Positions 4,334 through 31,654 are shown, counted from the first letter of the stretch. The stretch is 64,000 nucleotides of DNA from Prevotella sp. CAG:279 (GCA_963637505.1 CAVHNP010000001.1:36879-100878), one strand, 5' to 3'. Made by a program: numbers and translations. Notes: generated by a model not told the origin, from the letters alone.

Positions 4334-4347
4334 AGCCTGCCTCCCCT

Positions 4348-5956: not shown

Positions 5957-6036
5957 AAAAGATTATAATAAACACTCGATATTTATTAGAAAATATAATA
6001 AAATGAGAAAAAGAGCAAAAGAAAAGGAGGTAAGCC

Positions 6037-6933
6037 ATGGAATTTAAACAGCTTCAATCATTTGCCGCCTTAGTAAAATACAAAAGCTTCAGCAAGGTGG
6101 CCGATAAGCTTTATATCTCTCAGCCAACCGTCAGCACCCACGTACGGGATCTGGAAAAGGAACTGAAGACAAAGCTTGTCATCCGCAGCACCCACAGCGT
6201 GGAGATCACGGAAAAGGGCTATGAGCTCTACAACTTTTCCTGCCACGTCCTTGATATGAGGGATCATTTACTGGAACAATGGTCCAGCGAGGAGAAGGGC
6301 CTTTTGCATATCGCTGCTTCGACCATTCCGGCCGCCTATCTTCTCCCTCAGCTTCTGACCGGCTTTGAAAAGGAGCAGAAAAATGTCAGGGTTATCCTGA
6401 AGCAGGGAGACAGCCGGGACGTCATCGATGGCGTGCTGAAAGGCATTTTTGACCTTGGCTTTTCCGGCATGAAATCCGAGGACAGCGATCTGATCTTTTG
6501 GCCCATCTGCAAGGATCATATGGTTCTGATCACTCCGGTCAAAGAGCCCTTCCTGACCTGGAAGAAGGCGGGTGAGATCCCTGTGAATGAGCTGAAACGG
6601 ATTCCCTTTTTACGGAGAGAGGACGGAAGCGGAAGTCAGAAAAATGCCGACCGTTTTCTGGAGGAGATCGGTCTCAAAGAAGAAGAGCGTATTTCCGCCG
6701 GACAGGTAACAGAGCAGGAGTCTCTGAAAAAACTGGTAGAAGCCGGGATCGGTGTCGCAGTCTCTTCCCAGTGTTCTGTGCAGAGCGAAGCAGATCAGGG
6801 CAAATTACTCACCTTTGAACTGCCCGGCTGTGAAACCCAGAGAAATCTCTATCTCCTCTATCGAAAGGATGAAATTCGCAAATCTTCTGCCGAAGCCTTC
6901 ATCCGTTTTGTAAGAAATGAAGATGTTTTCTAA
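6037..6933 (+). CDS. LysR-family transcriptional regulator (selenium-metabolism-associated by context)
   Basis: 298 aa with an N-terminal wHTH (FSKVADKLYISQPTVSTHVRDLE) and a GGAGG RBS. It is divergent from selD. Confidence 0.85.
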   Translation: MEFKQLQSFAALVKYKSFSKVADKLYISQPTVSTHVRDLEKELKTKLVIRSTHSVEITEKGYELYNFSCHVLDMRDHLLEQWSSEEKGLLHIAASTIPAAYLLPQLLTGFEKEQKNVRVILKQGDSRDVIDGVLKGIFDLGFSGMKSEDSDLIFWPICKDHMVLITPVKEPFLTWKKAGEIPVNELKRIPFLRREDGSGSQKNADRFLEEIGLKEEERISAGQVTEQESLKKLVEAGIGVAVSSQCSVQSEADQGKLLTFELPGCETQRNLYLLYRKDEIRKSSAEAFIRFVRNEDVF

Positions 6934-6967
6934 AATTATTTGATAAAGTATAAAATTTATTTTAAAA

Positions 6968-6985
6968 TTGTGCAGTAAAACACAA
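6968..6985. promoter_or_regulatory. Dyad TTGTG-N8-CACAA (Rex / CRP-FNR-type half-site spacing) upstream of the Sec-FDH operon
   Basis: ttgtgcagtaaaacacaa was read directly; it has 5+5 perfect inverted half-sites. Confidence 0.4.
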
Positions 6986-7015
6986 ATGGAAAGGGGAAAT
7001 ATAGACTTCCTTCCA

Positions 7016-7044
7016 TTGAATTCACTTTTCTGCACATTTATAAT
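7016..7044 (+). promoter_or_regulatory. Sigma-70-type promoter of the Sec-FDH operon (-35 TTGAAT, 17 nt, -10 TATAAT)
   Basis: Hexamers and 17-nt spacer were counted in the sequence. The promoter is ~85 nt upstream of the ATG at 7129. Confidence 0.5.
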
Positions 7045-7128
7045 TTAGTACAGTAGCAGTATAGTCGGTTTTACTATGCAATTTTTTCTTCATTAAAATA
7101 ATTGCATAAAAATAAAGAGGTGTTACCT

Positions 7129-8973
7129 ATGGCAAAAATCTATTTGGCCGATCCCAACAATTGTGATGTCCGGATTGGCACAATGCTGGAAAAATTTGTC
7201 AATAAGGTGCTTAGTTACCCACCGGGAACCTGTCCTCTGACTGTGCAGTATTCACTTTTACTTGCATCTATGAACCAAACCTGCGGAAAATGTGTTCCCT
7301 GCCGTGATGGTCTGCCTCAGCTGTCCACCCTTCTGAAGAAGGTACTGGATGGAGAAGGCACACCGGAAACGGTAGAAGAGATCCGTTTTCTCGCAACCAT
7401 GATCAATGAAAGTGCAGACTGTGCGATCGGATATCAGGCTGCCGCTGAGGTGCTCAAGGGTCTGGATAATTTCAAACTGGAATATGAAAGCCATATTCAT
7501 GAGCATGTCTGTCCTTCTGATGTAGGACAGAAGGTACCTTGTATTAATTTATGTCCGGCACATGTTGATATTCCCGGATACATTGCCCTGGTCGGAGAGG
7601 GACGTTATGCAGATTGTATCAATCTGATCCGCAAAGACAACCCCCTGCCTACCTCCTGTGCAATGATCTGTGAGCATCCCTGTGAAAACAGATGCCGCCG
7701 CCGTCTGATCGATGATGCGATCAATATCCGCGGCCTCAAGAAATTTGCAGTCGATCAGATCCCTGTCGATCAGGTCAAGGTGCCCCGGCACCTGCCTTCT
7801 ACCGGTAAGAGTATCGGTATTATCGGAGGAGGTCCTGCAGGTCTTACCGCCGGATATTTCCTGGCTTTGATGGGACATAAGGTTATCATATATGAGCGCC
7901 AGCCCAAGCTGGGCGGTATGCTTCGTTATGGTATCCCGAATTACCGTTTCCCCAAAGATCGTTTGGATGAGGATATTAACGGTATTCTTTCCGCCGGTGA
8001 TATTGAAGTCAAATATGACACACATATCGATACGGCAGAGAAGATCCGTCAGGTTCAATCAGAGCATGATGCCATCTTTGTTGCGATCGGTGCCCAGGTC
8101 GGCAAAAAACTTCGCTTGGACGGCATCGATGCGGCGAATGTAGAATCCGCTGTAGATATGCTGGATCGTGTCGGAAAAGGAAACCGGCCGGATTATACCG
8201 GCAAGACCGTCTGTGTCATCGGCGGCGGAAACGTTGCCATGGATGCAGCCCGTTCTGCCCTTCGCTGCGGTGCGGATGATGTCCGTGTCATCTACAGAAG
8301 AAGACAGGAGGATATGACGGCTCTTGATTCGGAGATCGAGTCTGCTATGCAGGAGGGCATTGAATTTATGACCCTGCAGGCACCCAAGTCGATCGAAAAG
8401 GACAGCTACGGCAAATGTGCAGCCCTGGTTGTACAGCCCCAGATGATCGGTCCTTATGACAGGGCAGGAAGACCCAGTCCGACAGATGCCAAGAAGGATG
8501 CCCTTCGCATCCCCTGCGATGCGGTTCTGATCGCAGTCGGACAGGATATCGTCTCCGCTCCTTTTGAAGAATTCGGTATGCCGGCAAATCGAGGCGTCTT
8601 CCAGGGGAATCTGGACACCACGATCGATGACATGCCTGGCGTCTTTGTCGGCGGTGACTGTGCGACAGCACCGGCTACGGCAATCCGTGCAATTGCTGCA
8701 GGAAAAGTTGCAGCAAGAAATATAGATGAATATCTTGGTTATCATCATACCCAGCCATGTGATGTAGAAGCGCCCCTTCCGAGGGAGAATACCCGTGTTC
8801 AGATCGGACGCGCAAATATCACGGAAAGGCCGGCTTATATCCGAAAACATGACTTTGAGCATGTAGAAAATGCTTATACCTATGACGAAGCCATGCAGGA
8901 ATCCAGCCGCTGTCTCAGATGTGATCACTTTGGCTGCGGTGTTCTGAAAGGAGGTAGAGATTTTAATGATTAA
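7129..8973 (+). CDS. FDH electron-transfer subunit: NuoF-type 4Fe-4S module fused to GltD-like NAD(P)H/FAD oxidoreductase
   Basis: Start at MAKIYLADP, which has an AAAGAGG RBS and aligns with the start of the paralog at 21242. Motifs are CGKCVPCRDG, CEHPCENRC, GIIGGGPAGL and VIGGGNVAMDAAR. Confidence 0.85.
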   Translation: MAKIYLADPNNCDVRIGTMLEKFVNKVLSYPPGTCPLTVQYSLLLASMNQTCGKCVPCRDGLPQLSTLLKKVLDGEGTPETVEEIRFLATMINESADCAIGYQAAAEVLKGLDNFKLEYESHIHEHVCPSDVGQKVPCINLCPAHVDIPGYIALVGEGRYADCINLIRKDNPLPTSCAMICEHPCENRCRRRLIDDAINIRGLKKFAVDQIPVDQVKVPRHLPSTGKSIGIIGGGPAGLTAGYFLALMGHKVIIYERQPKLGGMLRYGIPNYRFPKDRLDEDINGILSAGDIEVKYDTHIDTAEKIRQVQSEHDAIFVAIGAQVGKKLRLDGIDAANVESAVDMLDRVGKGNRPDYTGKTVCVIGGGNVAMDAARSALRCGADDVRVIYRRRQEDMTALDSEIESAMQEGIEFMTLQAPKSIEKDSYGKCAALVVQPQMIGPYDRAGRPSPTDAKKDALRIPCDAVLIAVGQDIVSAPFEEFGMPANRGVFQGNLDTTIDDMPGVFVGGDCATAPATAIRAIAAGKVAARNIDEYLGYHHTQPCDVEAPLPRENTRVQIGRANITERPAYIRKHDFEHVENAYTYDEAMQESSRCLRCDHFGCGVLKGGRDFND

Positions 8974-11875
8974 TCTTACCATTGATGGCCGACAGCTTCA
9001 GGTTCCGGAGGGATATACTCTCCTGAATGCGGCCCGCCAGAATGGTATTAAGATACCTACTCTCTGTTATCTGGAGAAGGTCAATGAGATTGGCTCCTGC
9101 CGACTCTGTGTTGTAGAAGTGGAAGGAGAAAATAAGCTTTTAACCGCCTGCAATACGATCGCAAGAGACGGCATGATCGTTCATACCATGAGTGATAAGG
9201 TAGTTGCTTACCGAAAGATGGTATTGAATCTGCTTCTTTCCAATCATCATCAGGACTGCTTCTCCTGTGCCTCTAACGGCAAATGTGAGTTACAGGCAGT
9301 CTGTAATGAGTATGGTGTCTATCGTACCAGCTATAGCGGAACCCGATATAAGATCGAGGCCACCGAGAAAAATGCCCATCCTTTCCTGGGATACCGACCG
9401 ACTCTCTGTATTCAGTGTCAGAGATGTGTCGCTACCTGCGATAAAGTAAGCGGAAGAGGAGCGATCCAGCTCAGCAAAACAGGTATGTTCACCGTCATTG
9501 ACGCTCCTTTCGGAGAAAATTGGGAAAATACCACGATTTGCGAATCCTGCGGTAACTGTGCCGAAGCCTGTCCGACAGGCGCCCTTTATAAGAAGGCAGC
9601 CAAGAAATACCGTGAATGGGATCTGAAACGTGTCCGCACGACCTGTCCCCACTGTGCAGTCGGCTGCCAGATGGATCTTTTGGTTAAGAACAACCACATC
9701 GTTGGTGTGGAAGGTGCAGACGGACCGACAAACCATAATAGACTTTGCGTAAAAGGCCGTTTTGGTTCCTATAAGTTCGTAGAGTCTGGCGACCGTCTGA
9801 CAGATCCTCTGATCAAGGATAGAGAAACCGGCGAATTCAGAAAAGCAAGCTGGGATGAAGCACTTGATCTGGTTGCAAGTAAGTTTACTGCGATCCGAGA
9901 CGAATACGGCGGAGATGCACTTGCCGGATTTGCCTGCTCAAGAAGTGCAAATGAAGATATTTATATGCTTCAGAAAATGGTCCGCACAGTTTTCCAGACA
10001 AACAATACGGATAACTGTGCCCGTGTCTGACATGCCCCTACCGTCTCCGGTCTGGCGACAACATTGGGCTCCGGTGCGATGACGAACACCATTGCAGACA
10101 TTACCCAGGAATCTGACGTGATCATGATCGTTGGATCCAACTCTGAAGAAGCACATCCGGTACTCGGAATGCAGCTGAGAGCAGCTGTAAGAAGAGGTGC
10201 AAAGCTGATCGTAGCTGACCCGCGTGAGATCGACCTTGCAAAGAAAGCCAATGTGCACCTGAAATTACGCCCCGGTACAAACGTTGCCTTCATCAACGCC
10301 CTCCTTCATGTCATTATTGAAGAGGGAATGACAGATGAGGAATTCATCAAAGAACGTACTGAGGTAGAAGAATACGAAAAACTGAAAAAACTGGTTGAGA
10401 AATATACCCCTGAATATTCCGCTAAGATCTGTAATCTGGATCCGGACGATATTCGTGAGGCAGCCCGCCTTTATGCAAAGGCCGATAAGGCTCCGATCAT
10501 TTACTGTCTGGGTGTTACAGAGCATTCCACCGGTACAGAGGGCGTTATGTCCCTTTCCAATCTGGCCATGATAACCGGAAAACTCGGTCGTCCGGGCTGC
10601 GGTGTAAACCCGATCCGAGGTCAGAACAATGTACAGGGTGCCTGCGATATGGGTGCTATGCCGACCGACTTTACAGGATATCAGAAGGTTCATATCCCTG
10701 AGAATCGTGAGAAGTTTGAGAAAGCATGGGGCGTGAAGCTGAATCCGACCCCGGGTACAAAGGCAACCGAATGCTTCCCTGCTATGATCGAAGGCAAGAT
10801 CAAGGGACTCTTTATCTTCGGCGAGGATCCGATGCGTACCGATCCCGATACCCATCATGTTCTCCATGCCTTAGAAAGCCTTGATTTCCTGGTTGTAGAT
10901 GAGCTCTTTATGACAGAGACCGCAAAACTGGCTGATGTGGTTCTGCCGGGTCGCTCCTATGCGGAGAAGGAAGGAACCTTCTCTAATACAGAGCGTCGTG
11001 TGCAGCGTATCCGTAAGGCCATCACGGTTCCCGGCAACAGCCGTCTGGATACAGATATCTTTACCGATATCATGAACAGAATGGGTTATCCGCAGCCTTA
11101 CCTGACTGCAGCTGAGATCATGGATGAGATTGCTTCCCTGACACCGAGCTTTACCGGTATCTCCCATGCGAGACTGGATAGCGAGGAGATTGGCGGAAAC
11201 GGCATTCAGTGGCCCTGTCCTTCCAAGGATCATCCGGGTACACCGATCATGCATGTCGGCATGTTCAGCCGCGGAAAAGGTAACTATTACCTGGCAGAAT
11301 ATAAGCCTTCTCAGGAGCTTCCGGATGATGACTATCCGCTGATCATGATGACAGGCCGAAATCTCTATCACTACAATGCGATGGCGATGACAGATAAGAC
11401 ACCGGGACTGATGGAAATCTCCGGACACTCTTACATTGAGGTCAATACAAAGGATGCGGAAAAAGCCGGCATCCACGACGGAGAGCGTATTCGCGTTTCT
11501 TCCCGCCGAGGAACCATTTCCTCCGAGGCTCGCGTTTCGGATAAGACCAATCCGGGTGAATGCTGGATGCCTTTCCACTTCCTGGATGGTAATTCAAACT
11601 GGCTGACCAATGATGCACTCGACAGTATTGCCCGTGCACCGGAATATAAGGTTTGTGCCGTTAAGATCGAAAAGATTCCGGAAGAGGAAGCTTACACCAA
11701 GGATGGTGTATATATTACCCAGGCAATGATCGCCGAGAAGCGGAATCAGATCTATGCAGAACAGCTCGCAATTCCGACCCGCTGTGCAAACGGTGAGAGC
11801 GTAGCCATCACCAGAAGTGTGGATGATTATTCTACCCTGGTTACAGAAGGCTGTGACGGATGCTGCGGTGAGTAA
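8966..11875 (+). CDS. fdhA: Formate dehydrogenase alpha subunit, selenocysteine-containing (969 aa, U at codon 355)
   Basis: Track ORFs 8966..10030 and 10064..11875 are in the same frame and separated only by TGA 10028-10030. The Cys paralog reads NNTDNCARV-C-H at the same position. It has N-terminal 2Fe-2S/4Fe-4S clusters (CRLCVVEV, CIQCQRCVATC, CESCGNCAEACP, TTCPHCAVGC) and a MopB catalytic domain. Confidence 0.9.
10031..10069 (+). promoter_or_regulatory. Bacterial SECIS hairpin directly 3' of UGA-355
   Basis: Eighteen nt after the UGA there is an apical GGUCU loop closed by CC/GG. The stem continues GUC/GAC, and an outer GCCC/GGGC helix spans 10034-10069. I recall the same UGA-to-GGUC spacing for the E. 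coli fdhF SECIS. Confidence 0.65.
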
Positions 11876-11921
11876 GGCCATTCACAAAACGCCTTAGCGA
11901 AACCATTCCCTGTTATGGGTA

Positions 11922-11964
11922 AGGATTGGGGAATCGCAATGCGATTCCCCAATCCTATTATTAT
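11922..11964 (+). terminator. Rho-independent terminator after fdhA (16-bp perfect stem, AAT loop, T-rich tail)
   Basis: aggattggggaatcgc-aat-gcgattccccaatcct followed by attattat. Confidence 0.7.
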
Positions 11965-11967
11965 CAT

Positions 11968-12062
11968 GGGTGCAGAAGGGTGGCTGGTGTGCCCTCCGGT
12001 CTTCAAAACCGGTATGAGCTGATTTCGGCTCGGGTGGGTTCGATTCCCACCTGTACCCGCCA
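11968..12062 (+). tRNA. selC: tRNA-Sec (anticodon UCA)
   Basis: Hand-folded features: 8-bp acceptor stem (GGGUGCAG/CUGUACCC), anticodon arm CCGGU-CUUCAAA-ACCGG, 6-bp long variable arm (GAGCUG/CGGCUC), T arm GUGGG-UUCGAUU-CCCAC, discriminator G and encoded CCA. Confidence 0.9.
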
Positions 12063-12105
12063 AAAGAAATTCAATATGGATCAAACTATTTTCCATGTAT
12101 TCCCG

Positions 12106-12141
12106 GGAAGCCGCTTTCTTTTTCTAAAGCGGCTTCCTTTT
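12106..12141 (+). terminator. Rho-independent terminator after selC
   Basis: ggaagccgcttt / aaagcggcttcc 12-bp stem followed by tttt. Confidence 0.7.
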
Positions 12142-12145
12142 ATGA

Positions 12146-12247
12146 TATACTATATCGTACCGCGCTAGCGGTGCGATGCACAGCAGCTCCAAGCATTCGT
12201 AGAATGCTTCTAGTATGAGCTGCATGTCAGCGGTGCGATATAGTATA
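12146..12247 (+). repeat. Structured GC-rich palindromic module in the selC-selA spacer (18-bp outer stem plus two inner hairpins)
   Basis: tatactatatcgtaccgc pairs with gcggtgcgatatagtata (one G-U). Inner hairpins are ACCGC-GCUA-GCGGU and AGCAUUC-GUAG-GAAUGCU. The 5' 31 nt recur at 41946. Confidence 0.6.
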
Positions 12248-12261
12248 GGATAGGTAGCTGT

Positions 12262-13647
12262 ATGAATCAGAATTTATTACGACAAATTCCGAAAATGGAT
12301 AAATTATTAGAAAATGAGCAGATCGCTTCTGCGGCAGAAGGCCTTCCCCGGACGCTGGTTCGCAAGGCTCTCCAGGAAGAGCTTGATAAGCTTCGAAAAG
12401 AGCTCCTGCAGGGAGGTCTTATGCCGAAAGAAGAGGAATTATGCAAACGCATGAAGAAAGCCATCCAAAAAGCTTCTCTTTATCGTATGAGGAGGCTGAT
12501 CAATGCGACCGGCATTGTTCTTCATACCAATCTGGGCAGATCGCCCTTGGGAAAGGAAGCAGCAGAGCACGTTGCTTATACCGCAGCCGGCTACTCCAAT
12601 CTGGAATATGACCTCTCCAAGGGAAAAAGAGGCTCCCGCTATGATCTGATCGAGGATCTGATCTGCCAGATCACAGGAGCAGAAGCCGCCTTGGTGGTCA
12701 ATAATAATGCCTCTGCCGTTTTCCTCATGCTGAATACCCTTGCCAAAGGAAAGGAAGTTATTATTTCCCGGGGCGAGCTGGTCGAAATCGGCGGTTCCTT
12801 CCGAATTCCCGATATTATGGCTGCAAGCGGTACTCATCTGCATGAGATCGGAACAACCAATAAAACCCATTTGAAGGATTATGAGAAGGCTCTTTCTGAA
12901 AATGAAAACAGCCTTCTGCTGAAGGTACATACCAGTAATTTCAAATTAGTGGGCTTTTCCGAAGAGGTAGAAACAGCAGAACTGAGAAAACTGGCTGATA
13001 AATTTCAGGTTCCCCTCTTATTCGATCTGGGCGCAGGCTTTTTGATCAGACCGGAGGAGCTTGGTCTTCATGAGGGACTCTATGTGCCGGATGTCGTAAA
13101 GGAAACCGATCTTTGCTGCTTTTCCGGAGATAAGCTTTTCGGAGCAGGACAGGCCGGCATTCTGCTGGGTAAAAAAGAACTGATCGATGCCATGAAAAAA
13201 AATCAGCTCACCCGTATGCTTCGGGTAGACAAGATGACCTTAGCTGCCTTAGAAGCAAGCCTGCGTTCTTATCTGGATCCTGCCACTGCCAAGGAGCAGA
13301 TTCCGGTATTAAAAATGCTTTCTTCTTCAGAAGCAGACTTAAAAGAAAAGGCGGAAAAGATAGGGAAACTTTTGACCGAGGCCACGGCTTCCTTTCAGTT
13401 CAAAACCATTCCCTGTGAAGATGAACCGGGCGGCGGTTCCCTGCCGGCCATGACCCTTCCCGGATGGGCGATTGAAGTAAGTTCGGAAAACTATTCTCCG
13501 AATGAGTTGGAAAGCCTGCTTCGATCTGCTCCTCTTCCCGTGATCGGCCGCATCCACAAGGAACATCTGCTTCTTTCCGTCCGTACGATTTTAGAGGAGG
13601 ATATTTCCTCCTTAGTAGAAGCTTTTGTCTCTATTAAGGATCGCTGA
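12262..13647 (+). CDS. selA: L-seryl-tRNA(Sec) selenium transferase SelA
   Basis: 461 aa with a full-length SelA-like sequence (LINATGIVLHTNLGRSP..., FSGDKLFGAGQAGI). Confidence 0.9.
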   Translation: MNQNLLRQIPKMDKLLENEQIASAAEGLPRTLVRKALQEELDKLRKELLQGGLMPKEEELCKRMKKAIQKASLYRMRRLINATGIVLHTNLGRSPLGKEAAEHVAYTAAGYSNLEYDLSKGKRGSRYDLIEDLICQITGAEAALVVNNNASAVFLMLNTLAKGKEVIISRGELVEIGGSFRIPDIMAASGTHLHEIGTTNKTHLKDYEKALSENENSLLLKVHTSNFKLVGFSEEVETAELRKLADKFQVPLLFDLGAGFLIRPEELGLHEGLYVPDVVKETDLCCFSGDKLFGAGQAGILLGKKELIDAMKKNQLTRMLRVDKMTLAALEASLRSYLDPATAKEQIPVLKMLSSSEADLKEKAEKIGKLLTEATASFQFKTIPCEDEPGGGSLPAMTLPGWAIEVSSENYSPNELESLLRSAPLPVIGRIHKEHLLLSVRTILEEDISSLVEAFVSIKDR

Positions 13648-13692
13648 GCAAAGAAGAGCATTCATTTATGTATGTAATGGAAGGATCATCTT

Positions 13693-15630
13693 ATGAAACA
13701 TATTGTTTTGGGTACAGCCGGTCATATCGATCACGGCAAGACCCTCCTTACAAAAGCCCTGACCGGCATTGATACCGACCGCCTGGCAGAAGAGAAGAAG
13801 CGGGGCATTACCATCGAGCTGGGCTTTGCCCCCATGACCTTATCCGACGGAAATAAGATCAGCCTTGTTGACGTCCCCGGCCATGAAAAATTCGTCAAGA
13901 CCATGATGGCCGGCGCCTCCGGTATCGATGGTGTTTTGCTTATTATTGCTGCAGATGACGGTATTATGCCCCAGACCAGGGAACATCTGGATATCATTCG
14001 TCTCCTTCACGTACAAAAGGGTCTTCTTGTGATCACAAAATGCGATCTTGCAACAGAGGAAAGAATTTCCGAGGTAAAAGCTTCTCTCAAAGAGCTTACA
14101 AAGGGAAGCTGCCTGGAAAATGCCCCCATCTGCGAAGTATCTGCTCTGACCGGAAGCGGTATGGAGGAGCTGAAAAAAGAAATCGAAGCTCTGGTTGCCC
14201 AATTAGAAGAAAGAAAGGGCAATAAACCGGCCAGACTGCAGGCCGATCGGGCCTTTCCCGTCAGCGGCTTCGGTACGGTTGCAACCGGCACCTTAACAGA
14301 GGGCACTCTGCATGTAGGAGACAGTATCGAAATCTATCCGCAAAAAGAAGTCTGCCAGATCAGAAGTCTGCAAAATCATAATAAAAACGAGGATTCTGCC
14401 TTTGCAGGATCCAGAACAGCCATGAGTTTTTCCGGCTTGAAAAAGGATCTTCAGATCAAAGGCTCTGCCATTGCGGAGCCGGATTCCATGATCGTAACAA
14501 ATTTTCTGGATGTTTTCCTGCAGATCACACCGGATTGCAAGTATCAGATCAAGAATTCCTCCCAGCTTCATTTTTTCCATGGAACAGAAGAGGTCATAGC
14601 CAAGCTGCGCCTTCTGGACTGCGATAAACTCCTGCCCGGACAAAGCGGCTATGCCCAGATGAAACTCTCCAAGGGAATTGCTGTCCGCCTGGATGATTCC
14701 TTTCTTCTCCGCTTCTTTTCTCCGGTGATCACAATCGGAGGCGGAAAGATCCTATCCTGCCAGGGTAAGCGGCTTCGCCGTCATTATCAGCCGGTTCTGG
14801 AAAGACTGAAAAAACTAAATAGTAGAGATGAGGCCGAAAAGCTGGAGATCCGCATCGAAGAAGCCGGCATTCTTCCTATTTCCAGGCATCTGCTCCGGAC
14901 CAGAGCCAATCAGTCAGAAGAAGAATATCGCCCTGCTGAAGAAAAGCTTCTGCAAAGCGGCAGAATTTTTGAGATAAGAGACGGAAAACTGATCAGCCAG
15001 TCCGCCATTGAAGAAAGATGGGAAAAATGCAGAGAGCTTCTGCAGGCTTTTCATAAAAGCTATTCCCTCCAACCCGGCATGAAGATTGCCGAATGGAGAA
15101 AAAGACTCTTTCCGGAAGAAGGGGCTCCTTGTGATCAGCTCTTAGAGATCTGGTGCGAAAAAGGATTGCTGAAAGCAGAAAATGCCTATCTTTCCCTGGC
15201 TGATTTCGAGCCGGAATTCACCCAGCAGCATAAGATCATGCAAAGAAAGCTCCTGCATTATTATAAGGATGCCTGGCTCATGCCTCCGGAACAGAAGATC
15301 GTGGATAAAAAATTCGAAAAAAGGGGACCGATCTATAAGCAGATCCATATCAACATGCGAATGAACGGCCTGCTGATCGGTCTTTCGCCCAGCTATTATG
15401 TACATCACGAGGCTTATGCAGAGGCCCTGCGCATCTTCACTGAGCTATGTGAAAAGCAGGGCGGAAGTGCCAGTCTGGCGCAATTTCGAACAGCAGCGGA
15501 GATCTCCAGAAAATATTCCCAGCTTTTCCTGGAGTATTGGGATAAACACGGCATTAGCCGCAGGGTGGGGGATGAGCATGTTTTGATTTCAAAAGGCCGA
15601 GATGTTCTGCCCAGGATCAAAAGCCGTTGA
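13693..15630 (+). CDS. selB: Selenocysteine-specific elongation factor SelB
   Basis: GTPase motifs GHIDHGKT, DVPGHEKF and TKCD, plus long C-terminal winged-helix domains. The last 11 codons and the stop lie inside repeat copy A. Confidence 0.9.
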   Translation: MKHIVLGTAGHIDHGKTLLTKALTGIDTDRLAEEKKRGITIELGFAPMTLSDGNKISLVDVPGHEKFVKTMMAGASGIDGVLLIIAADDGIMPQTREHLDIIRLLHVQKGLLVITKCDLATEERISEVKASLKELTKGSCLENAPICEVSALTGSGMEELKKEIEALVAQLEERKGNKPARLQADRAFPVSGFGTVATGTLTEGTLHVGDSIEIYPQKEVCQIRSLQNHNKNEDSAFAGSRTAMSFSGLKKDLQIKGSAIAEPDSMIVTNFLDVFLQITPDCKYQIKNSSQLHFFHGTEEVIAKLRLLDCDKLLPGQSGYAQMKLSKGIAVRLDDSFLLRFFSPVITIGGGKILSCQGKRLRRHYQPVLERLKKLNSRDEAEKLEIRIEEAGILPISRHLLRTRANQSEEEYRPAEEKLLQSGRIFEIRDGKLISQSAIEERWEKCRELLQAFHKSYSLQPGMKIAEWRKRLFPEEGAPCDQLLEIWCEKGLLKAENAYLSLADFEPEFTQQHKIMQRKLLHYYKDAWLMPPEQKIVDKKFEKRGPIYKQIHINMRMNGLLIGLSPSYYVHHEAYAEALRIFTELCEKQGGSASLAQFRTAAEISRKYSQLFLEYWDKHGISRRVGDEHVLISKGRDVLPRIKSR

Positions 15631-15743
15631 AAAACCCCAGTGCTTAGCAAGAGGTGCATGGAACATGTGCCTCGAGCTTAGCATCTGCTGGGTTTTTCCC
15701 CGAGCGAAAGCGTGCTTTAGATCCGGCAGAATCATTCTCGGCC
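15595..15743 (-). repeat. Long-hairpin intergenic repeat, copy A (149 nt, inverted relative to copies B and C)
   Basis: Bounded by ggccgaga...tctcggcc. Its reverse complement aligns to copy C with 10 substitutions over 147 positions (hand alignment). Confidence 0.85.
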
Positions 15744-15812
15744 TTTGTGGCTCTAGGAATAACCATCCACACAATCCTGTAACCTCGTATTTAAGTAAAT
15801 TCTCCAAGGTTT

Positions 15813-16691
15813 TCAAGTATACTGCTCATAAACCTGCGTCCGGCATTTGCCCAGAAGGGTCAGTCCGTATTCCTCCGCCAGCTCGATCGCCGCATCGGAT
15901 ACGCTGGCTTTGCTTGCAAGGATAGGGATTCCGGCCTGAATTGCCTTCATAGCCATATCGGTCGGGATTCGTCCGCTGGAAAAGGCGATGCACTTTTTCG
16001 GATCGATTCCATGTCTTAGGGCATAGCCGATCGCTTTATCCAGGGCATTATGCCTGCCGATGTCTTCACAGGTAAAGAGGATTTCCCCTTCCCGCATGAG
16101 AAAACAGCTGTGTGTCGCCCCCGTCTGGGAATGGAGCGGCATTCCCTCTTCAAAACGCTTCGAAAGGGCATAGATCCAGTCGGCTTTCCAGTCGATGGGG
16201 TCTATTTTTTTTAGGGGAAGATCTTTTACAAAATAATCGTTTAAGATCCGGTTTCCGGTACAGCAGGAGGGTGTCACTTCTACATAGGCTTCCTCTGCTT
16301 TTTTCGCCTCCGGGATATCCCCATCCCTTGTCAGCCTTCCATCACCGTCTTTTTCCCTTCTAAAGGACTGCTCTGTACTGTCTTCTCCGCCTTCCTTTAA
16401 GGTTACAAAGGCCTGTTTGCCATATCTGCAGATATAGATCTCCTCCACATCCTCCGCTCCGGAGATGATTCCCTCTGTCAGAAGCCTTCCTAAAACAAGT
16501 TCGGTAAGCTGGGTTGGAATGCAGATCAGCTTCATGGTATGCAGATTGTTAATATAGACATCAATTGCATGCTCAACAAGAACAGACCGCCTTTTGATTG
16601 CGGTCTGTCCATCTGAGCCTACAGCTCTGTATTCTGTTTCTTTGATTGTTTCCGGTTGAAATTCAGTGTATAATTCACGAATTTTCATCAC
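15813..16691 (-). CDS. fdhD: Formate dehydrogenase accessory sulfurtransferase FdhD
   Basis: 292 aa with a C-terminal FdhD signature region (GATHSCFL..., CEDIGRHNALDKAIGYAL). It overlaps the fdhA(Cys) stop by 17 nt. Confidence 0.85.
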   Translation of the reverse strand: MMKIRELYTEFQPETIKETEYRAVGSDGQTAIKRRSVLVEHAIDVYINNLHTMKLICIPTQLTELVLGRLLTEGIISGAEDVEEIYICRYGKQAFVTLKEGGEDSTEQSFRREKDGDGRLTRDGDIPEAKKAEEAYVEVTPSCCTGNRILNDYFVKDLPLKKIDPIDWKADWIYALSKRFEEGMPLHSQTGATHSCFLMREGEILFTCEDIGRHNALDKAIGYALRHGIDPKKCIAFSSGRIPTDMAMKAIQAGIPILASKASVSDAAIELAEEYGLTLLGKCRTQVYEQYT

Positions 16692-19407
16692 TTATCTTCT
16701 CCACCTTGATCGCGCATACCTTATATTCCGGAATCCTGCAGATGGGGTCTAAGGCAGAGTTTGTCAGCCAGTTTGCATTGCCATCCGGGAAGTGGAAGGG
16801 CATCCAGGTTTCTCCTTCCGAAACCTTCTTTCCGACACGGGCAGTGGACTGAATACTTCCTCGTCTGGAAGAAACCCTTACCAGCTCTCCGTCCTTGATT
16901 CCGATTCTTGCGGCATCCATTTCGTTGATCTCGATAAAGGATTTTCCGGAAATCTCCATCATACCCGGAGTACGGCCTGTCATGGCACGGGTTGTGTAAT
17001 GATAGAGAATACGGCCTGTCATCAGATAGAGGGGATAATCCTTATCCGGAAGCTCGATCGGGTCTGAATATTCTGTCGGATAGAGCCAGCCGAGACCACG
17101 GGAGAATTTACCCACATGCATAATCGGTGTGCCCGGATGATCCTTGGTCGGGCAGGGCCACTGCAGGCCGTTTCCGGCAACCTCCTCGCTATCCAGCCTC
17201 TCGTGGGAAATACCGCCGAAGCTCGGTGTGAGAGAAGCAACCTCATCCATGATCTGGGCAGAAGTCAGATGCGGCTGCGGATAACCCATACGATTCATCA
17301 GATCAATGATGATATCGGTATCCAGACGGATATCGAATTCCGGATCCTTGGTCAGATCAACCGCCTTACGAACACGGCAGACCCTTCTTTCTGTATTGGA
17401 GAAGGTTCCTTCCTTTTCCGCATAGCTCATACCTGGCAGGATAACATCTGCGAATTCTGCTGTTTCCGTCATGAAAAGCTCCTGCACAACAAAGAAGTCC
17501 AGGCTGGAAAGAGCCTTACGGATATGAGTTGTATCCGGATCTGTAACCACAGGATCCTCTCCATAAATATAAAGTCCGCGGATTTCCTTCTTAATTGCTT
17601 TCGGGAATACATCGGTTGCAAAGGTACCGATATTCGGATCCAGTTCCACGCCCCAGGCCTTTTCGAATTTTGCACGGATGGCATCATCTGTTACATCCTG
17701 ATAGCCCGGGAACTTATTCGGCATAGCGCCCATATCGCAGCCACCCTGTACATTGTTCTGGCCACGAAGAGGGTTGACACCACAGCCGGACCGACCGATC
17801 TTACCGCAAAGCATAGCCATATTGGACATGGACATAACGCCAACCGTACCATTCGAGTGCTCTGTTACACCCAGACAGTAAATGATCGGTGCCTTGTCTG
17901 CTGTGGCATACATACGGGCAGCCTCGATCAGCTGATCCTTATCGATATGGCAGGCCTCTGCAACAACTTCCGGTGTATAATCCTTTACGATCTCCTTGAG
18001 AGTCTCATAGCCTTCTGTTCTTTCTGCAATGAACTTTTCGTCTACAAGACCTTCCTCGATCATAACATGCATCATACCGTTTGCGAACATAATATCTGTT
18101 CCCGGCTTTAATTTCAGATGAATATCGGCATACTTGGTAAGGCCGATATCTCTCGGATCTACAACGATCAGCTTGGTTCCCTTTCGAACCGCTTCACGGA
18201 TCTGCATACCGACTACCGGATGAGCTTCTTCCGGATTGGAACCAACCAGAAGGATACAGTCTACATCATGAGTGATATCGTAGATCGGATTTGTCATGGC
18301 ACCGGATCCGAGGGTAATGGCCAGTCCGGATACGGAAGCAGAATGGCAGACGCGGGCGCAGTTATCGGTATTATTATTTCCGAAGCAGCATCTTACCATC
18401 TTCTGAACCATGTAGATATCCTCATTCGGGGAACGGGAGCAGGCAAAACCGGCCAGAGAGCTGGAGCCATACTTCTTCTTGATCTCCATGAATTTAGAAG
18501 CGACCAGATCCAGGGCTTCATCCCAGGAAGCTCTTTCAAATTCACCTGTTTCCTTATTCTTGATCAAAGGATATTTGATACGATCCTTGGAATGAACAAA
18601 ATCAAAGCTGGCGGAACGTCCCTTGACACAGAGTCTGCCATGGTTGCTTGGTCCGTCTGCAGGCTCACAATCTACGATTTTATTATCTTTGACGATCAGA
18701 TCATACTGACAGCCTGTTGCGCAGTGGGGACAGGTGGTACGTACACGCTTGATTTCCCATTCACGATATTCTTTTCTTCTTTTTTCTTTTAAAGCACCGG
18801 TCGGACAGGCCATTGCACAGTTACCGCAGGATTCGCAAAGGGTATTCTTCCAGTTTTCTCCAAAGGGAGCATCGATTACGGTAAACATACCTGTCTTATC
18901 CAGTTCGATCGCGCCTCGTCCGGAAACATGATCACAGGTGCTGACACAGCGCATACAATGGATGCAAAGATTGGGATCATAGCTGAGGAAGGGATGCTCA
19001 TCCTTGGGTGCCGGATTGATCTTATAGCGGGTTCCCTCATAGCTGGTATAGTTTACGCCATAGTCATTGCAATATCTCTGCAGATCACAGATACCGTTAT
19101 TCGGACAGGAAAAACAATCCTGATGGTGGTTGGAGAGGAGAAGATCGAGCACGGTTTTTCTTGCTGCTACAACTCTCTCTGACATAGTATCGATCACCAT
19201 TCCTTCCTGCACTAAGGTATTGCAGGCCGGCGGCATTTTTTCCATTCCTTCTACATCAACAATACAAAGGCGACAGGAGCCGATCTCGTTTACTCCCTCC
19301 AGATAGCAGAGGGTCGGGATCTCGATGCCGGCGGATCTGGCTGCCTTTAAGATGGTCGTTCCTTCTTCTGCCTCAATGGCAATTCCGTTTATCGTTACAT
19401 GAATCAT
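16675..19407 (-). CDS. fdhA: Formate dehydrogenase alpha subunit, Cys-type paralog (910 aa)
   Basis: Colinear with 8966..11875 and shares blocks IPTLCYLE, NEIGSCRLC, LLLSNHHQDCFSC, GMFTVIDAPFGENW, RVRTTCPHCA, ASWDEALDLVASKF and NNTDNCARV. Cys replaces Sec. Confidence 0.9.
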   Translation of the reverse strand: MIHVTINGIAIEAEEGTTILKAARSAGIEIPTLCYLEGVNEIGSCRLCIVDVEGMEKMPPACNTLVQEGMVIDTMSERVVAARKTVLDLLLSNHHQDCFSCPNNGICDLQRYCNDYGVNYTSYEGTRYKINPAPKDEHPFLSYDPNLCIHCMRCVSTCDHVSGRGAIELDKTGMFTVIDAPFGENWKNTLCESCGNCAMACPTGALKEKRRKEYREWEIKRVRTTCPHCATGCQYDLIVKDNKIVDCEPADGPSNHGRLCVKGRSASFDFVHSKDRIKYPLIKNKETGEFERASWDEALDLVASKFMEIKKKYGSSSLAGFACSRSPNEDIYMVQKMVRCCFGNNNTDNCARVCHSASVSGLAITLGSGAMTNPIYDITHDVDCILLVGSNPEEAHPVVGMQIREAVRKGTKLIVVDPRDIGLTKYADIHLKLKPGTDIMFANGMMHVMIEEGLVDEKFIAERTEGYETLKEIVKDYTPEVVAEACHIDKDQLIEAARMYATADKAPIIYCLGVTEHSNGTVGVMSMSNMAMLCGKIGRSGCGVNPLRGQNNVQGGCDMGAMPNKFPGYQDVTDDAIRAKFEKAWGVELDPNIGTFATDVFPKAIKKEIRGLYIYGEDPVVTDPDTTHIRKALSSLDFFVVQELFMTETAEFADVILPGMSYAEKEGTFSNTERRVCRVRKAVDLTKDPEFDIRLDTDIIIDLMNRMGYPQPHLTSAQIMDEVASLTPSFGGISHERLDSEEVAGNGLQWPCPTKDHPGTPIMHVGKFSRGLGWLYPTEYSDPIELPDKDYPLYLMTGRILYHYTTRAMTGRTPGMMEISGKSFIEINEMDAARIGIKDGELVRVSSRRGSIQSTARVGKKVSEGETWMPFHFPDGNANWLTNSALDPICRIPEYKVCAIKVEKISDENS

Positions 19408-21242
19408 TCGTCTCTGCCTCCTTTCAATACACCACAGCCAAAGTGGTCACATCTCAGACAGCGGTTTGCTTCCTGCATGGCTTCTGCATGGGTCAGTTCT
19501 ACTTCCACGCCTTCAAAATCACATTTTCTGATGAAGGCCGGACGCTCCGTTACATTAACCCTTCCGGTCGGAACACGGTTATTTTCCTTCGCCGGCGGTA
19601 CCTCCACATTACAGGGGAGCTTATGATGATAGCCAAGGTATTCATCGATATTGTGGGCAGCAACCTTTCCTGCCGCAATGGCGCGAATAGCAGTAGAGGG
19701 GCCTGTTGCACAGTCACCTCCGACAAATACGCCTTCCATATCCTCCACTCTGGTAGTAAGAGAGGCCTCAAAAACGCCTCTGTTTGCCTTCATGCCGAAT
19801 TCTTCAAAAGGAGCGGAGATGATATCCTGGCCGACAGCGATCAGAACGATCTCACAGGGAACCCGGATCTCATCCTTCTCTGTATCCATAGGGCTGGGTC
19901 TTCCGGCACGATCATAAGGTCCGATCATCTGCGGCTTAACAAAGAGGGCAGTGGTATTGCCATTTTCATCCGCTTCAATGGACTTTGGTGCCATCAGGGT
20001 CATAAATTCAATACCCTCCTGCATGGCGGATTCGATCTCAGACTCTAATGCCGTCATATCTTCCTTTCGACGACGGTAGATAACACGGACATCCTTTGCT
20101 CCGCATCTGACAGAAGAACGGGCCGCATCCATGGCAACGTTTCCGCCACCAATGACACAGACGGTCTTGCCGGTATAATCCGGCTTTATGCCATTGCCGA
20201 TGCCATCCAGCATATCTACCGCAGAGTCAACACCCTTGGCATCTACATTGTCCAGACGAAGCTTTTTACCCTCCTGAGCGCCGATCGCAACAAAGAGGGC
20301 ATCATATTTTTCATGTAATTCCGCAATTTTTTCCGCTGTATCAATATGGGTATTGTATTTTACCTCGATATCACCTGCAGACAGAATGGCATTAGTATCC
20401 TCCTCCAAGCGGTTCTTCGGGAAACGGTAATTCGGAATACCATAGCGAAGCATGCCGCCCAGCTTATCATGGCGCTCATAGACAGTCACCTTATGTCCCA
20501 TCTGACCTAAGAAATAAGCACAGGTCAGACCTGCCGGGCCTCCGCCGATCACACCGATATGCTTGCCGGTGGAAGGATTTGCCTTTGGAACCTCGACCTT
20601 ATCTGCTGCGACCTGGTCGACTGCATATTTTTTCAGTCCTCGGATATTTACGGCATCATCGATCAGATTTCTCCTGCATCTTTCCTCACAGGGATGCTCA
20701 CAGATCATGGCACAGGCCGTCGGGAAAGGATTGTCCTTCCGGATCATATTAATAGAAGCGGCATAGTCCTCCTGACCGATCAGGGCAATATAGGCCGGTA
20801 CATCTACATGAGCCGGACACTGATGGATACAGGGCACCATCTGACCAGATTCACTCGGACAGACATGCTTCTTGATATGACTTTCGTATTCCTCTGCAAA
20901 GGTATCCAGTCCAGCCAGAACCTCCGCTGCGGACTGATAACCGATCGCACAATCAGAGGACTGGGTGATCATGGTTGCCAGACTTCTCATCTGATCTAAG
21001 GTCGTTTCATCAGCATCTCCATCCAGGATCTTCTTGAGAAGATTGGACAGCTGCGGCAGACCGTCCCTACAGGGTACACACTTTCCGCAGGTCTGGTTCA
21101 TGGAAGCCAGAAGAAAAGAATACTGTACCGTCAAAGGGCAGGTTCCCGGCGGATAAACCTCTACCTTTGTACTAAACTTATTCAAGATATTTTTAATTTT
21201 TACATCCGTGCTTTTGGGATCAGCTAGATATAGTTGACTCAT
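19404..21242 (-). CDS. FDH electron-transfer subunit paralog (NuoF-type FeS + GltD-like oxidoreductase)
   Basis: 612 aa, colinear with 7129..8973 and with the same motifs. It overlaps the fdhA(Cys) start by 4 nt. Confidence 0.85.
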   Translation of the reverse strand: MSQLYLADPKSTDVKIKNILNKFSTKVEVYPPGTCPLTVQYSFLLASMNQTCGKCVPCRDGLPQLSNLLKKILDGDADETTLDQMRSLATMITQSSDCAIGYQSAAEVLAGLDTFAEEYESHIKKHVCPSESGQMVPCIHQCPAHVDVPAYIALIGQEDYAASINMIRKDNPFPTACAMICEHPCEERCRRNLIDDAVNIRGLKKYAVDQVAADKVEVPKANPSTGKHIGVIGGGPAGLTCAYFLGQMGHKVTVYERHDKLGGMLRYGIPNYRFPKNRLEEDTNAILSAGDIEVKYNTHIDTAEKIAELHEKYDALFVAIGAQEGKKLRLDNVDAKGVDSAVDMLDGIGNGIKPDYTGKTVCVIGGGNVAMDAARSSVRCGAKDVRVIYRRRKEDMTALESEIESAMQEGIEFMTLMAPKSIEADENGNTTALFVKPQMIGPYDRAGRPSPMDTEKDEIRVPCEIVLIAVGQDIISAPFEEFGMKANRGVFEASLTTRVEDMEGVFVGGDCATGPSTAIRAIAAGKVAAHNIDEYLGYHHKLPCNVEVPPAKENNRVPTGRVNVTERPAFIRKCDFEGVEVELTHAEAMQEANRCLRCDHFGCGVLKGGRDE

Positions 21243-21349
21243 AACCCCTCCTTAATAATTTTTAATAAATAGTAAATATTTATAATAAACAAAAGAAAAG
21301 AAAAAAGATTCCTTCTCTTGTTCTTTTCCTAAAAAATGCAGGCAAATAG

Positions 21350-21457: not shown

Positions 21458-22282
21458 TTATGATTTTTTACCCTTCAGATAGCAGAACCAGTATACACCA
21501 CCGACCAGAACGGCACCACCGATAATGTTACCGAGCGTTACCGGCAGAAGGTTTGCTCCGAAATAATTAGCAACCGTAAGATTTGTCATATCCACACCGG
21601 CTTCCTGTGCTGCCTGTGCGTAAGCCGGAATCGTCTTTGCGAAAAGACCGGCACCGATATAATACATATCTGCAATGCTATGCTCAAATCCGCACAATAC
21701 GAACATCATGATCGGGAAGAAAAGTCCGACGATCTTACTTACAACGTCCTTTGCCGCAAAGGAGATCCATACGGCAATACAGACAAGGAAGTTACAAAGG
21801 ATACCCTTGATCAGCGCATCGCTAAAAGGCATGGAGCACTTTGTGGCTGCGGTAGAAATAACAGAAACAGCAAGCCCGTTGTTAAAGAGACTGATCTGAT
21901 GGCTGTATACCACACCTGCCGCAAGCAGAAGACTTCCGATCAGGTTTCCGATATAAACAAAAACCCAGTTCTTCAGCATACCTCCAAGGGAGATCTCCTT
22001 CTGCAGAAGCGGAATCGTCAGAAGACAGTTTCCGGTAAAAAGCTCGCTTCCTGCGATCAGTACCATGGTCAGTCCGCCCGGGAATACACAGGCTCCGACG
22101 AATTTACCTACCGAGGCCAGAGGGATGGAAACCGCAACCGTAGTAGAGCTGATTCCTCCGACTCCGATAAAGATCCCTGCAAAAATGCCCAGAAGAATCA
22201 TCTTCGGAATGGGCGTATTAACTTTTGCCTTTCCTGTTGCTATATAATTTGCTGCAACGTCAGCTGGTGAAAAAAAGTTCAT
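21458..22282 (-). CDS. focA: Formate/nitrite transporter (FNT) family channel
   Basis: 274-aa polytopic membrane protein with an FNT-like sequence. The formate assignment rests on context next to FDH. Confidence 0.75.
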   Translation of the reverse strand: MNFFSPADVAANYIATGKAKVNTPIPKMILLGIFAGIFIGVGGISSTTVAVSIPLASVGKFVGACVFPGGLTMVLIAGSELFTGNCLLTIPLLQKEISLGGMLKNWVFVYIGNLIGSLLLAAGVVYSHQISLFNNGLAVSVISTAATKCSMPFSDALIKGILCNFLVCIAVWISFAAKDVVSKIVGLFFPIMMFVLCGFEHSIADMYYIGAGLFAKTIPAYAQAAQEAGVDMTNLTVANYFGANLLPVTLGNIIGGAVLVGGVYWFCYLKGKKS

Positions 22283-22322
22283 TTCGTTTGACTCCTTTCG
22301 ATGTTATGTCTTTCTTTTTCAA

Positions 22323-22340
22323 ATTATATCATGCTATAAT
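22323..22340. promoter_or_regulatory. Back-to-back extended -10 elements (minus TGATATAAT for focA, plus TGCTATAAT for pucR)
   Basis: attatatca|tgctataat was read directly. It forms an imperfect palindrome centred on CATG. Confidence 0.45.
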
Positions 22341-22350
22341 GACCTAATAA

Positions 22351-22366
22351 TTGTGCAGAATGTCAC
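22351..22366. promoter_or_regulatory. Second copy of the TTGTGCAG-N5-CAC motif
   Basis: ttgtgcagaatgtcac. The 9-mer attgtgcag is identical to 6967-6975. Confidence 0.35.
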
Positions 22367-22439
22367 CTAATTCAAAAAAATAATGTGCACATTTATAACT
22401 CTTGGTTATATTTATAACAAGCAAACGGAACTATATGTT

Positions 22440-25340: not shown

Positions 25341-25405
25341 AATAGGGGCTTAAACCATAAAAGCACCTACACATAAAGGCTCTTTTTTAGAGAAAGGATT
25401 TAACG

Positions 25406-26434: not shown

Positions 26435-26448
26435 AGGATTTCTTTATC

Positions 26449-27399: not shown

Positions 27400-27486
27400 C
27401 ATAATTATCATCATTGTTTCCTTGACACATTGAAAAAAAATAAAGCACATTTAGCTTTAAGCTATTTTTATACACAGAGGTGAAAG

Positions 27487-28420: not shown

Positions 28421-28439
28421 GGCATTTCCTGCCAACAAA

Positions 28440-28453: not shown

Positions 28454-28466
28454 AGTGTGTTCTAAC

Positions 28467-31652: not shown

Positions 31653-31654
31653 GA

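Follow-up and report, generated by a model that had tools for sequence, protein, structure and literature searches.

We analysed a stretch of 64,000 nucleotides (nt) of DNA from Prevotella sp. CAG:279 (GCA_963637505.1 CAVHNP010000001.1:36879-100878), hereafter the window, in which two operons for a two-subunit formate dehydrogenase (FDH) face each other. Each operon consists of fdhB, for the beta subunit, followed by fdhA, for the catalytic alpha subunit. The operon at 7129-11875 (plus strand) and the one at 16675-21242 (minus strand) converge, and between them are the gene for the selenocysteine tRNA (tRNA-Sec), selA, selB and fdhD. The catalytic subunit of the first operon uses selenocysteine (Sec) and that of the second uses cysteine (Cys). 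This gene content and these coordinates agree with an earlier note on the same DNA. We considered a selenium-contingent pair of isoenzymes, with the Cys enzyme as a backup, to be the best reading of the locus, and we hold it with moderate confidence.

An open reading frame (ORF) map, a tRNA scan and family searches of the window gave one continuous functional block from yedF to a transporter of the ModABC type. The genes and the element on which the reading is based are the following.

7129-8973, plus strand: fdhB1, beta subunit of the Sec operon (PF10589, PF14691, PF07992; NF009410, 606 bits)
8966-11875, plus strand: fdhA-Sec, catalytic subunit (TIGR01591, 838.8 bits)
10043-10059, plus strand: apical hairpin of the selenocysteine insertion sequence (SECIS), GUCUCC-GGUCU-GGCGAC, obtained by a comparative test and beginning 12 nt after the UGA
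11968-12062, plus strand: selC, tRNA-Sec with anticodon UCA (ARAGORN; Rfam, 73.4 bits)
12262-13647, plus strand: selA (TIGR00474, 579 bits)
13693-15630, plus strand: selB (TIGR00475, 343.5 bits)
15813-16691, minus strand: fdhD (TIGR00129, 148 bits), overlapping the end of fdhA-Cys by 17 nt
16675-19407, minus strand: fdhA-Cys, catalytic subunit (TIGR01591, 820.1 bits)
19404-21242, minus strand: fdhB2, beta subunit of the Cys operon (PF10589, PF14691, PF07992)

The selenocysteine codon and the class of the enzyme

Both FdhA copies are full-length and above the TIGR01591 cut-off of 666.25, and PF04879, PF00384 and PF01568 match in both. With its TGA read as Sec, fdhA-Sec is a single frame of 969 amino acids (aa), in which the TGA at 10028-10030 corresponds to U355 in the motif CARVUH; a search of the window's own genome (2.33 Mb, 98% complete) found exactly one TGA within this frame. 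The codon of fdhA-Cys that aligns with it is TGC (18348-18346), in the motif CARVCH. In order to compare these genes we fetched 147 related loci (numbered with L below), from which 146 FdhA genes were extracted, each classed by its active-site codon. A Sec or Cys ligand followed by His is present in all 146. As for the decoding machinery, selA, selB, selC and selD are all inside the window, with one copy each in the genome.

Across 20 distinct Sec-type genes, 96.7% of the cells of the 6-bp SECIS stem with its GGUCU loop are paired. Covariation was seen at two pairs (U-A to C-G in seven genes, C-G to A-U in three), 0 of 500 shuffles matched this pairing and covariation, and the signal collapsed when the partner was shifted by 1-3 columns. 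The same codons in 112 Cys-type genes gave no consensus fold. The signal comes from the comparative test only, and folding the SECIS region of the window as a single sequence was uninformative (z = -0.08). We consider fdhA-Sec to be a true selenoprotein gene, because of the covarying SECIS, the adjacent selC, selA and selB, and the TGA kept in the sister genome L086. We also scanned the genome for other TGA-bridged ORFs with a codon-usage score, which could not tell real genes from off-frame ORFs, and its best-ranked hits were neighbouring same-frame genes or junk. GrdA and GrdB had no match in the genome, in searches that were also empty in every control genome.

As regards the enzyme class, the domains of both FdhB copies are a NuoF-type 4Fe-4S region, a dicluster domain and a GltD-like FAD/NAD(P)H domain. 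The closest solved relatives are, for FdhB, the GltD-like parts of Stn/Nfn-type transhydrogenases and, for FdhA, which has a NuoG-like N-terminus, Rhodobacter FdsA. An Arg-rich stretch follows the second Rossmann strand (VRVIYRRRQ in one FdhB, VRVIYRRRK in the other), and at GltD-type sites such a stretch is taken as a mark of NADPH preference. A third full-length FdhB paralogue, with 50% identity, is encoded elsewhere in the same genome (C6:1042-3491), and the protein encoded after it matches FdhA in just the 210 residues of the NuoG-like N-terminus. The paralogue is probably part of an NAD(P)H-linked hydrogenase, or of some other iron-sulfur (Fe-S) enzyme with the same electron-input module.

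The earlier note had likened the enzyme to the two-subunit NADP-dependent FDH of acetogens. The FdhB domain set bears out this likeness, which does not extend to a role in the Wood-Ljungdahl pathway: the beta subunit of acetyl-CoA synthase (AcsB/CdhC) had no match in the 98%-complete genome, therefore the host is not an acetogen and acetogen physiology is ruled out. Formyl-tetrahydrofolate synthetase (Fhs) and two glycyl-radical enzymes similar to pyruvate formate-lyase (PFL) are encoded in the genome. Judging by the gene content of the genome, the FDH is not the CO2 reductase of an acetogen; it probably converts formate and CO2 into each other with NAD(P)(H), the host being a fermenter that would make formate by PFL and move it via FocA.

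Age of the pair and its recurrence in relatives

The full-length colinearity of the copies, as described in the earlier note, extends over 913 aa in FdhA (68% identity) and over 611 aa in FdhB (74% identity). The long identical blocks that had also been reported exist at the protein level, where they reach about 23 aa; at the DNA level the identity between the operons is just 72-87%, patchy and limited to coding sequence, with none in flanks or promoters. FdhA-Sec has a C-terminal extension of 60 aa (11678-11875), which is absent from the Cys copy and ends in CDGCCGE. The first half of this extension (IPxxEAYxxxGxYITQAM) is also found in a subclade that has Cys-type enzymes among its members (L015, L016, L019, L020, L035 and L100), and its Cys-rich end was found elsewhere only in L086 and L098.

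The FdhA tree had two deep clades by both FastTree and IQ-TREE, with an SH-aLRT support of 100. Clade A holds most Sec genes together with several independent Cys conversions, and clade B is nearly all Cys. The Sec copy of the window is in clade A with L086, L098 and L087, and its Cys copy is in clade B, beside the Cys copy of Bilifractor porci. When the two copies, with their sister-genome orthologues, were constrained to one clade, the cost was 416 log-likelihood (lnL) units and the constraint was rejected (p-AU 3.4e-5). Synonymous sites between the paralogues are saturated (proportion of synonymous differences, pS, 0.63-0.71). Each of the four genes, compared with its sister-genome orthologue, has a ratio of nonsynonymous to synonymous divergence (dN/dS) of 0.015-0.036 at dS 0.7-0.96, values by which all four are under strong purifying selection. 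Saturated synonymous sites, low dN/dS and two deep clades together mean that the pair is ancient and that all four genes are functional. By this comparison the two operons are old paralogues of different FdhA lineages, fixed side by side with the Sec machinery.

The trees of FdhA and FdhB are incongruent, with FdhB1 placed among the FdhB of L016, L019 and L020, whose FdhA belongs to clade B, and away from FdhB2. In a sliding-window comparison the N-terminal Fe-S domain of FdhA tracks FdhB and not the catalytic domain; precisely, that of the Sec copy is equally close to the clade-B loci L016 and L019 and to its own Sec clade (regions compared, 8966-9800 and 18600-19407). The incongruence and the N-terminal pattern together mean that the operons have a modular history, which suggests domain-level recombination among them. 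The FdhA of L087 has a strongly divergent N-terminus.

The pairing of Sec and Cys genes beside sel genes is not unique to this genome, and several fetched loci show the same layout. In Bilifractor porci (L006/L009) the same clade-A Sec and clade-B Cys pair stands beside sel genes in the order yedF-sclA-selD-fdhB-fdhA(Sec)-fdhD-selC-fdhA(Cys)-selA-selB. One fdhB, upstream, serves both alpha genes, and tRNA-Sec is flanked by fdhD and the Cys-type fdhA (L006 9775-10003), so that the Cys gene is embedded in the cluster of the Sec machinery. In L142 the Sec and Cys genes converge around selA-selB as in the window, the pairing of a clade-A Sec with a clade-B Cys gene is present in L117/L054 too, and in strain TWA4 the two copies are far apart. 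In genomes with one member per clade, the clade-A copy is always Sec and the clade-B copy always Cys, and the pair is usually beside sel genes.

To place these loci we used an even sample of 201 genera of the host's family. This FdhA type was found in 18 of the 201 genera; Sec and Cys copies occur together in three of the 18, one of them being the window's genome. Among Sec-type carriers, selA was present in all four checked near-complete genomes (at least 90% complete), within a few kb of the Sec gene in two of them. In G075, which is 84% complete, there is a TGA-containing FdhA yet selA was not found. Three Cys-only carriers lack selA, and neither this FDH type nor selA is present in G125, the other species of the window's genus (98% complete). 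As judged from gene presence in the sampled genomes, Sec decoding tracks Sec-type FDH in this family, and the whole Sec-decoding trait may be maintained mainly for Sec-type FdhA. Since a congener has neither the FDH nor selA, and selA tracks Sec-type FdhA, the block behaves as an accessory unit; this suggests that it is gained or lost as a unit and is variable within the genus.

Control regions and competing explanations

The genes and sites that bear on control are the following.

4840-5877, minus strand: selD, selenophosphate synthetase, without an in-frame stop codon (TIGR00476, 389.8 bits; one copy in the genome)
5968-5986, unstranded: candidate LysR_Se operator 1, dyad ATAAA-N9-TTTAT between the divergent selD and lysR, 51 nt before the lysR ATG
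6037-6933, plus strand: LysR-type regulator of the selenium-associated LysR_Se (HrsM-like) subfamily (NF040786, 284 bits, cut-off 250)
6934-7128, plus strand: Sec-operon promoter region, with -35 TTGAAT and -10 TATAAT at 7016-7044
11922-11956, plus strand: hairpin of 16 bp with a poor U-tract, between the fdhA-Sec stop and selC, a weak terminator or a processing signal
12105-12138, plus strand: predicted strong terminator after selC
21265-21283, unstranded: candidate LysR_Se operator 2, dyad ATAAA-N9-TTTAT, 23-41 nt upstream of the fdhB2 ATG
21458-22282, minus strand: focA-like formate channel of the FNT type, upstream of fdhB2 on the same strand (TIGR04060, E 1.6e-66, 224 bits, under the cut-off of 290)
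22283-22396, unstranded: focA/pucR divergent control region, with TGCACA boxes at 22347-22360 and 22383-22396
22383-24074, plus strand: PucR-family regulator with a C-terminal HTH_30 domain (PF13556), divergent from focA

The LysR gene points away from selD and immediately precedes the Sec operon. Of the roughly 26 LysR-type genes in the genome no other exceeds the NF040786 cut-off, the next best having 142 bits. The dyad ATAAA-N9-TTTAT occurs three times in the window versus 0.09 expected. Its half-sites are kept while the spacers are changed, site 1 in L086 and site 2 in L001 and L002, in intergenic DNA that is just 54-69% identical. For AT-rich 200-nt windows drawn at random from this genome, the probability that two of them have such a dyad in common is 0.0013 (N9 only) or 0.010 (N5-N13). 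We considered the dyad as a candidate LysR_Se operator only. A look-alike with one mismatch precedes the Cys gene in L042/L073 and was ruled out as a LysR_Se site, that genome being without LysR_Se; with L142 lacking the dyad, its extension to other lineages fails.

The comparison of the promoter regions 6934-7128 and 21243-21349 proposed in the earlier note detected no repeat or shared motif. Instead, the Sec promoter has boxes in common with the focA/pucR region, and the dyad of the fdhB2 leader is also that of the selD/lysR region. The TGTGCA/TGCACA boxes of the Sec promoter are at 6964-6977 and 7028-7041, with a dyad TTGTG-N8-CACAA at 6968-6985; L086 has kept the upstream box and not the downstream one. 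Of the seven matches to TTCTGCACAWTTAT-type boxes in the window, four fall in the Sec promoter and the focA/pucR region, versus 1.1 expected, and each of these promoters has a box in the interval between a -35 element TTGAAT and the -10 element. Distant relatives, with FdhA of either the Sec or the Cys type, have related boxes (ATGTGYR..GCAY) between pucR and focA, and gene maps show that the divergent pairing of focA and PucR is conserved beside focA-fdhBA-fdhD cassettes in many relatives. The obvious candidate for the regulator of this common layer is the PucR-family protein. Rex is encoded in the genome, and Rex or a CRP-type factor may act at the shared boxes; we did not name Rex as the regulator because the focA-side boxes have spacings other than that of TTGTG-N8-CACAA. 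The box ATGTGCACATTTAT (22383-22396) overlaps the first ATG of the longest PucR-like ORF, whose true start may be further downstream.

On the reading of a selenium-contingent pair, the block would encode two alternative versions of one cytoplasmic, NAD(P)H-linked, two-subunit molybdenum or tungsten (Mo/W) formate dehydrogenase. FdhB would pass electrons among NAD(P)H, FAD and Fe-S clusters, and FdhA would hold Fe-S clusters and the metal site with its bis-pyranopterin guanine dinucleotide (bis-PGD) cofactor. The metal ligand would be Sec in one alpha subunit, through UGA-355 decoded by selC-selA-selB with selenophosphate supplied via selD, and Cys in the other. With selenium present the Sec enzyme would be made; with selenium absent the translation of fdhA-Sec would stop at the UGA, and the Cys enzyme would carry the flux between formate and CO2, formate being produced by PFL and moving through FocA. 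Two layers of control are envisaged. The common one would act through the TGTGCA/TGCACA boxes of the Sec and focA/pucR promoters, with the PucR-family protein as its candidate regulator. In the selenium-specific one LysR_Se would act on ATAAA-N9-TTTAT at its own promoter and that of selD and just upstream of fdhB2, and, if it acts as HrsM does in archaea, it would keep the Cys operon repressed while selenium is at hand; a further contribution would come from fdhA-Sec expression being lost at the UGA through translation-coupled polarity, as in Treponema primitia.

It is possible, though we put it forward as a doubtful proposal, that LysR_Se is a bacterial counterpart of HrsM with the operator ATAAA-N9-TTTAT. 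It would sense selenium, autoregulate selD/lysR and shut off the Cys operon from the site that lies 23 nt before fdhB2, and UGA-dependent polarity would tie the Sec operon and selC to selenium. If true, this would be, within the literature searched, the first case in bacteria of a transcription switch that senses selenium and whose target and site are known, carried in a portable block of 21 kb.

Several findings weigh against the reading as a whole or against its selenium-specific layer. The sole fdhD of the 98%-complete genome (tblastn) is that of the Cys operon; fdhD is a sulfurtransferase required for FDH maturation. Production of the Sec enzyme thus demands expression of the Cys unit, at least of its tail, and if selenium repressed that operon fully the Sec enzyme would be left without its maturation factor; the placement of fdhD speaks against a strict on/off switch. 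That only the Cys operon carries fdhD had already been noticed. The boxes, in turn, point to a common, selenium-independent layer, hence to co-regulation rather than reciprocal control. The dyad was found post hoc and is not over-represented genome-wide (10 observed versus about 8 expected, with no spacing favoured), and the L142 genome has a LysR_Se yet no shared dyad was found there. LysR_Se was not found in the genomes of Bilifractor porci or L073, both of which have Sec/Cys pairs, so it is not required for such pairs. Cys/Cys paralogue pairs exist in L013, L075 and L004, therefore keeping two copies needs no selenium reason. Finally, the window's subclade has a U.C mismatch in the SECIS stem, from an Ala-to-Ser codon change; the mismatch is also present in the closest relatives, of which the longer loci L002, L087 and L098 have selA and selB alongside.

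Three other explanations have to be weighed against a selenium-contingent pair. The operons could respond jointly to formate or redox state through a common regulator, without any transcriptional selenium switch, so that selenium would only limit the completion of the Sec polypeptide, the Cys enzyme would be constant and the Sec enzyme would add capacity. The boxes shared by the Sec and focA/pucR promoters and their likenesses in distant relatives fit this explanation, as do the placement of fdhD, Rex with the TTGTG-N8-CACAA dyad, and the pairs that occur without LysR_Se. It has to face the LysR_Se gene directly between selD and the Sec operon, a dyad common to the lysR promoter and the fdhB2 leader and kept in sister genomes, the second Sec-promoter box not kept in L086, and the selenium-dependent transcription documented for Sec/Cys paralogues in T. 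primitia and Methanococcus (PMC3892789, PMC11097638). We regard it as unlikely, and still as one to be reckoned with.

In another explanation, which we consider improbable, the pair is kept for a reason other than selenium (Mo versus W, the working direction, that is, CO2 reduction versus FocA-coupled formate oxidation, or nucleotide preference), and the Sec/Cys difference is incidental. Two deep lineages do co-occur in several genomes, Cys/Cys pairs exist, only the Cys operon is linked to focA and a PucR-type regulator, and the histories of FdhB and of the FdhA N-terminal domain differ from that of the catalytic domain. Against it, both FdhB have the same Arg-rich stretch, hence no hint of differing cofactor specificity, one fdhB serves both alpha genes in Bilifractor porci, the block has just one set of Mo/W transport and cofactor genes, and paired copies are always Sec in clade A and Cys in clade B, usually beside sel genes. 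The earlier note had also suggested phylogenies of both subunits as a check on in-situ duplication. We give next to no credence to the idea that one operon was recently duplicated in place and in inverted orientation and that a codon change, from Sec to Cys or from Cys to Sec, came afterwards. The operons are colinear and in mirror orientation, and a truly recent sister Sec/Cys pair is known in L042/L073; here the separate deep clades with their rejected joint clade and the saturated synonymous sites refute it, and the low DNA identity, the grouping of FdhB1 away from FdhB2 and the lack of similarity into flanks or promoters stand against it as well. A selenium-contingent pair of old paralogues is the reading that we retain.

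Neighbouring genes and known systems

The other features of the block are the following.

2501-3121, minus strand: yedF, selenium-metabolism sulfurtransferase-like (TIGR03527, 216.7 bits, cut-off 110)
3197-4390, minus strand: class-V cysteine desulfurase or selenocysteine-lyase-like (SclA-like) gene (TIGR01977, 441 bits; NF040779 SclA, 369 bits, under its cut-off)
4348-4818, minus strand: moaC (TIGR00581, 193.8 bits)
24135-32713, unstranded: Mo/W cofactor supply genes, namely moeA, a moeA-like gene, moaA, mog/moaB, a MOSC gene, a molybdenum cofactor (Moco) riboswitch, mobAB and a ModABC-type transporter
28513-28665, plus strand: Moco riboswitch (RF01055, 68 bits)
28695-29747, minus strand: mobAB, a mobA/mobB fusion (family searches)
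29840-32713, plus strand: ModABC-type transporter (family searches)

As the earlier note had it, the Sec machinery, a selD operon with its LysR, here assigned to the LysR_Se subfamily, and an FNT formate channel are within about 21 kb; Moco biosynthesis and the Mo/W-type ABC transporter lengthen the block to about 32.7 kb. The Moco riboswitch has no gene directly after it on its strand, and about 1.17 kb antisense to the mobA/mobB fusion precedes the ModA-like gene at 29840. This stretch is either a very long leader of the transporter operon or the site of antisense transcription across mobAB under control of the riboswitch. Between the tRNA-Sec terminator and the selA ribosome-binding site there is a structured element, an inverted repeat pair of 23 nt, 87% complementary and 66 nt apart, at 12141-12252.

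Formate is a main electron carrier between gut microbes, and the selenium supply of the gut varies with diet. The locus means that non-acetogenic Lachnospiraceae, too, keep a Sec and a Cys version of an NAD(P)H-linked FDH next to the Sec machinery. With two candidate sites and two target operons it is a small test bed for bacterial LysR_Se regulators, for which the cultured Bilifractor porci, with the same pair and without LysR_Se, is a natural contrast. For the specialist we consider it a tidy but unsurprising case, of moderate interest.

The LysR_Se subfamily was defined by comparative genomics, and the archaeal HrsM represses Cys isogenes under selenium sufficiency (PMC5322559, PMC11097638); it binds an intergenic region, and its shown targets are hydrogenase (frc/vhc) operons (PMC11097638; PMC5322559). 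Our literature search found no bacterial LysR_Se with a demonstrated target or operator. Like HrsM in Methanococcus, the regulator of the window is encoded with selenium genes and passes the subfamily model; the archaeal one differs in having hydrogenase operons as targets, whereas the sites in the window are candidates only. In T. primitia selenium controls the transcription of fdhF(Sec) and fdhF(Cys), for fdhF(Sec) via translation-coupled elongation across the UGA and SECIS (PMC3892789; Matson et al. 2010 cited therein). That case is alike in having paralogous Sec and Cys FDH genes in a gut symbiont, and it differs in being a spirochaete with an FDH-H type enzyme in acetogenesis, whose selenium control was shown by experiment, whereas the present case is known from sequence alone.

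The beta subunit of the NADP-dependent FDH of Moorella thermoacetica has a 4Fe-4S region, a dicluster domain and a GltD-type NAD(P)H/FAD domain (PMC5736913). That enzyme (Moth_2312 to Moth_2314) is likewise two-subunit and cytoplasmic, with a Sec-containing alpha subunit, the likeness being one of architecture by description only; it works in the Wood-Ljungdahl pathway, whereas the host here is without AcsB.

The closest known case is the cluster of Acetobacterium woodii, in which fdhF1 (Cys)-hycB1-fdhF2 (Sec)-hycB2-fdhD are adjacent to sel genes and the copies are in tandem and 79% identical; its FDH was reported as the only selenoprotein of that genome (PMC3315566). Both loci have side-by-side Cys and Sec isoenzymes, each with its own electron-transfer partner, a single fdhD and adjacent sel genes. 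In the acetogen the enzyme is a hydrogenase-linked FdhF with HycB, whereas here an NAD(P)H-linked FdhA with a GltD-like FdhB is found in a non-acetogen; and in contrast to the tandem copies of A. woodii, those of the window are 68% identical, belong to two deep clades and converge on selC-selA-selB, with LysR_Se alongside. The layout is already known from acetogens and is no new kind of system. The window differs from the known cases in its enzyme class, in its non-acetogenic gut host of the Lachnospiraceae type, in the age of the paralogy, in its convergent geometry and in a bacterial LysR_Se with candidate sites.

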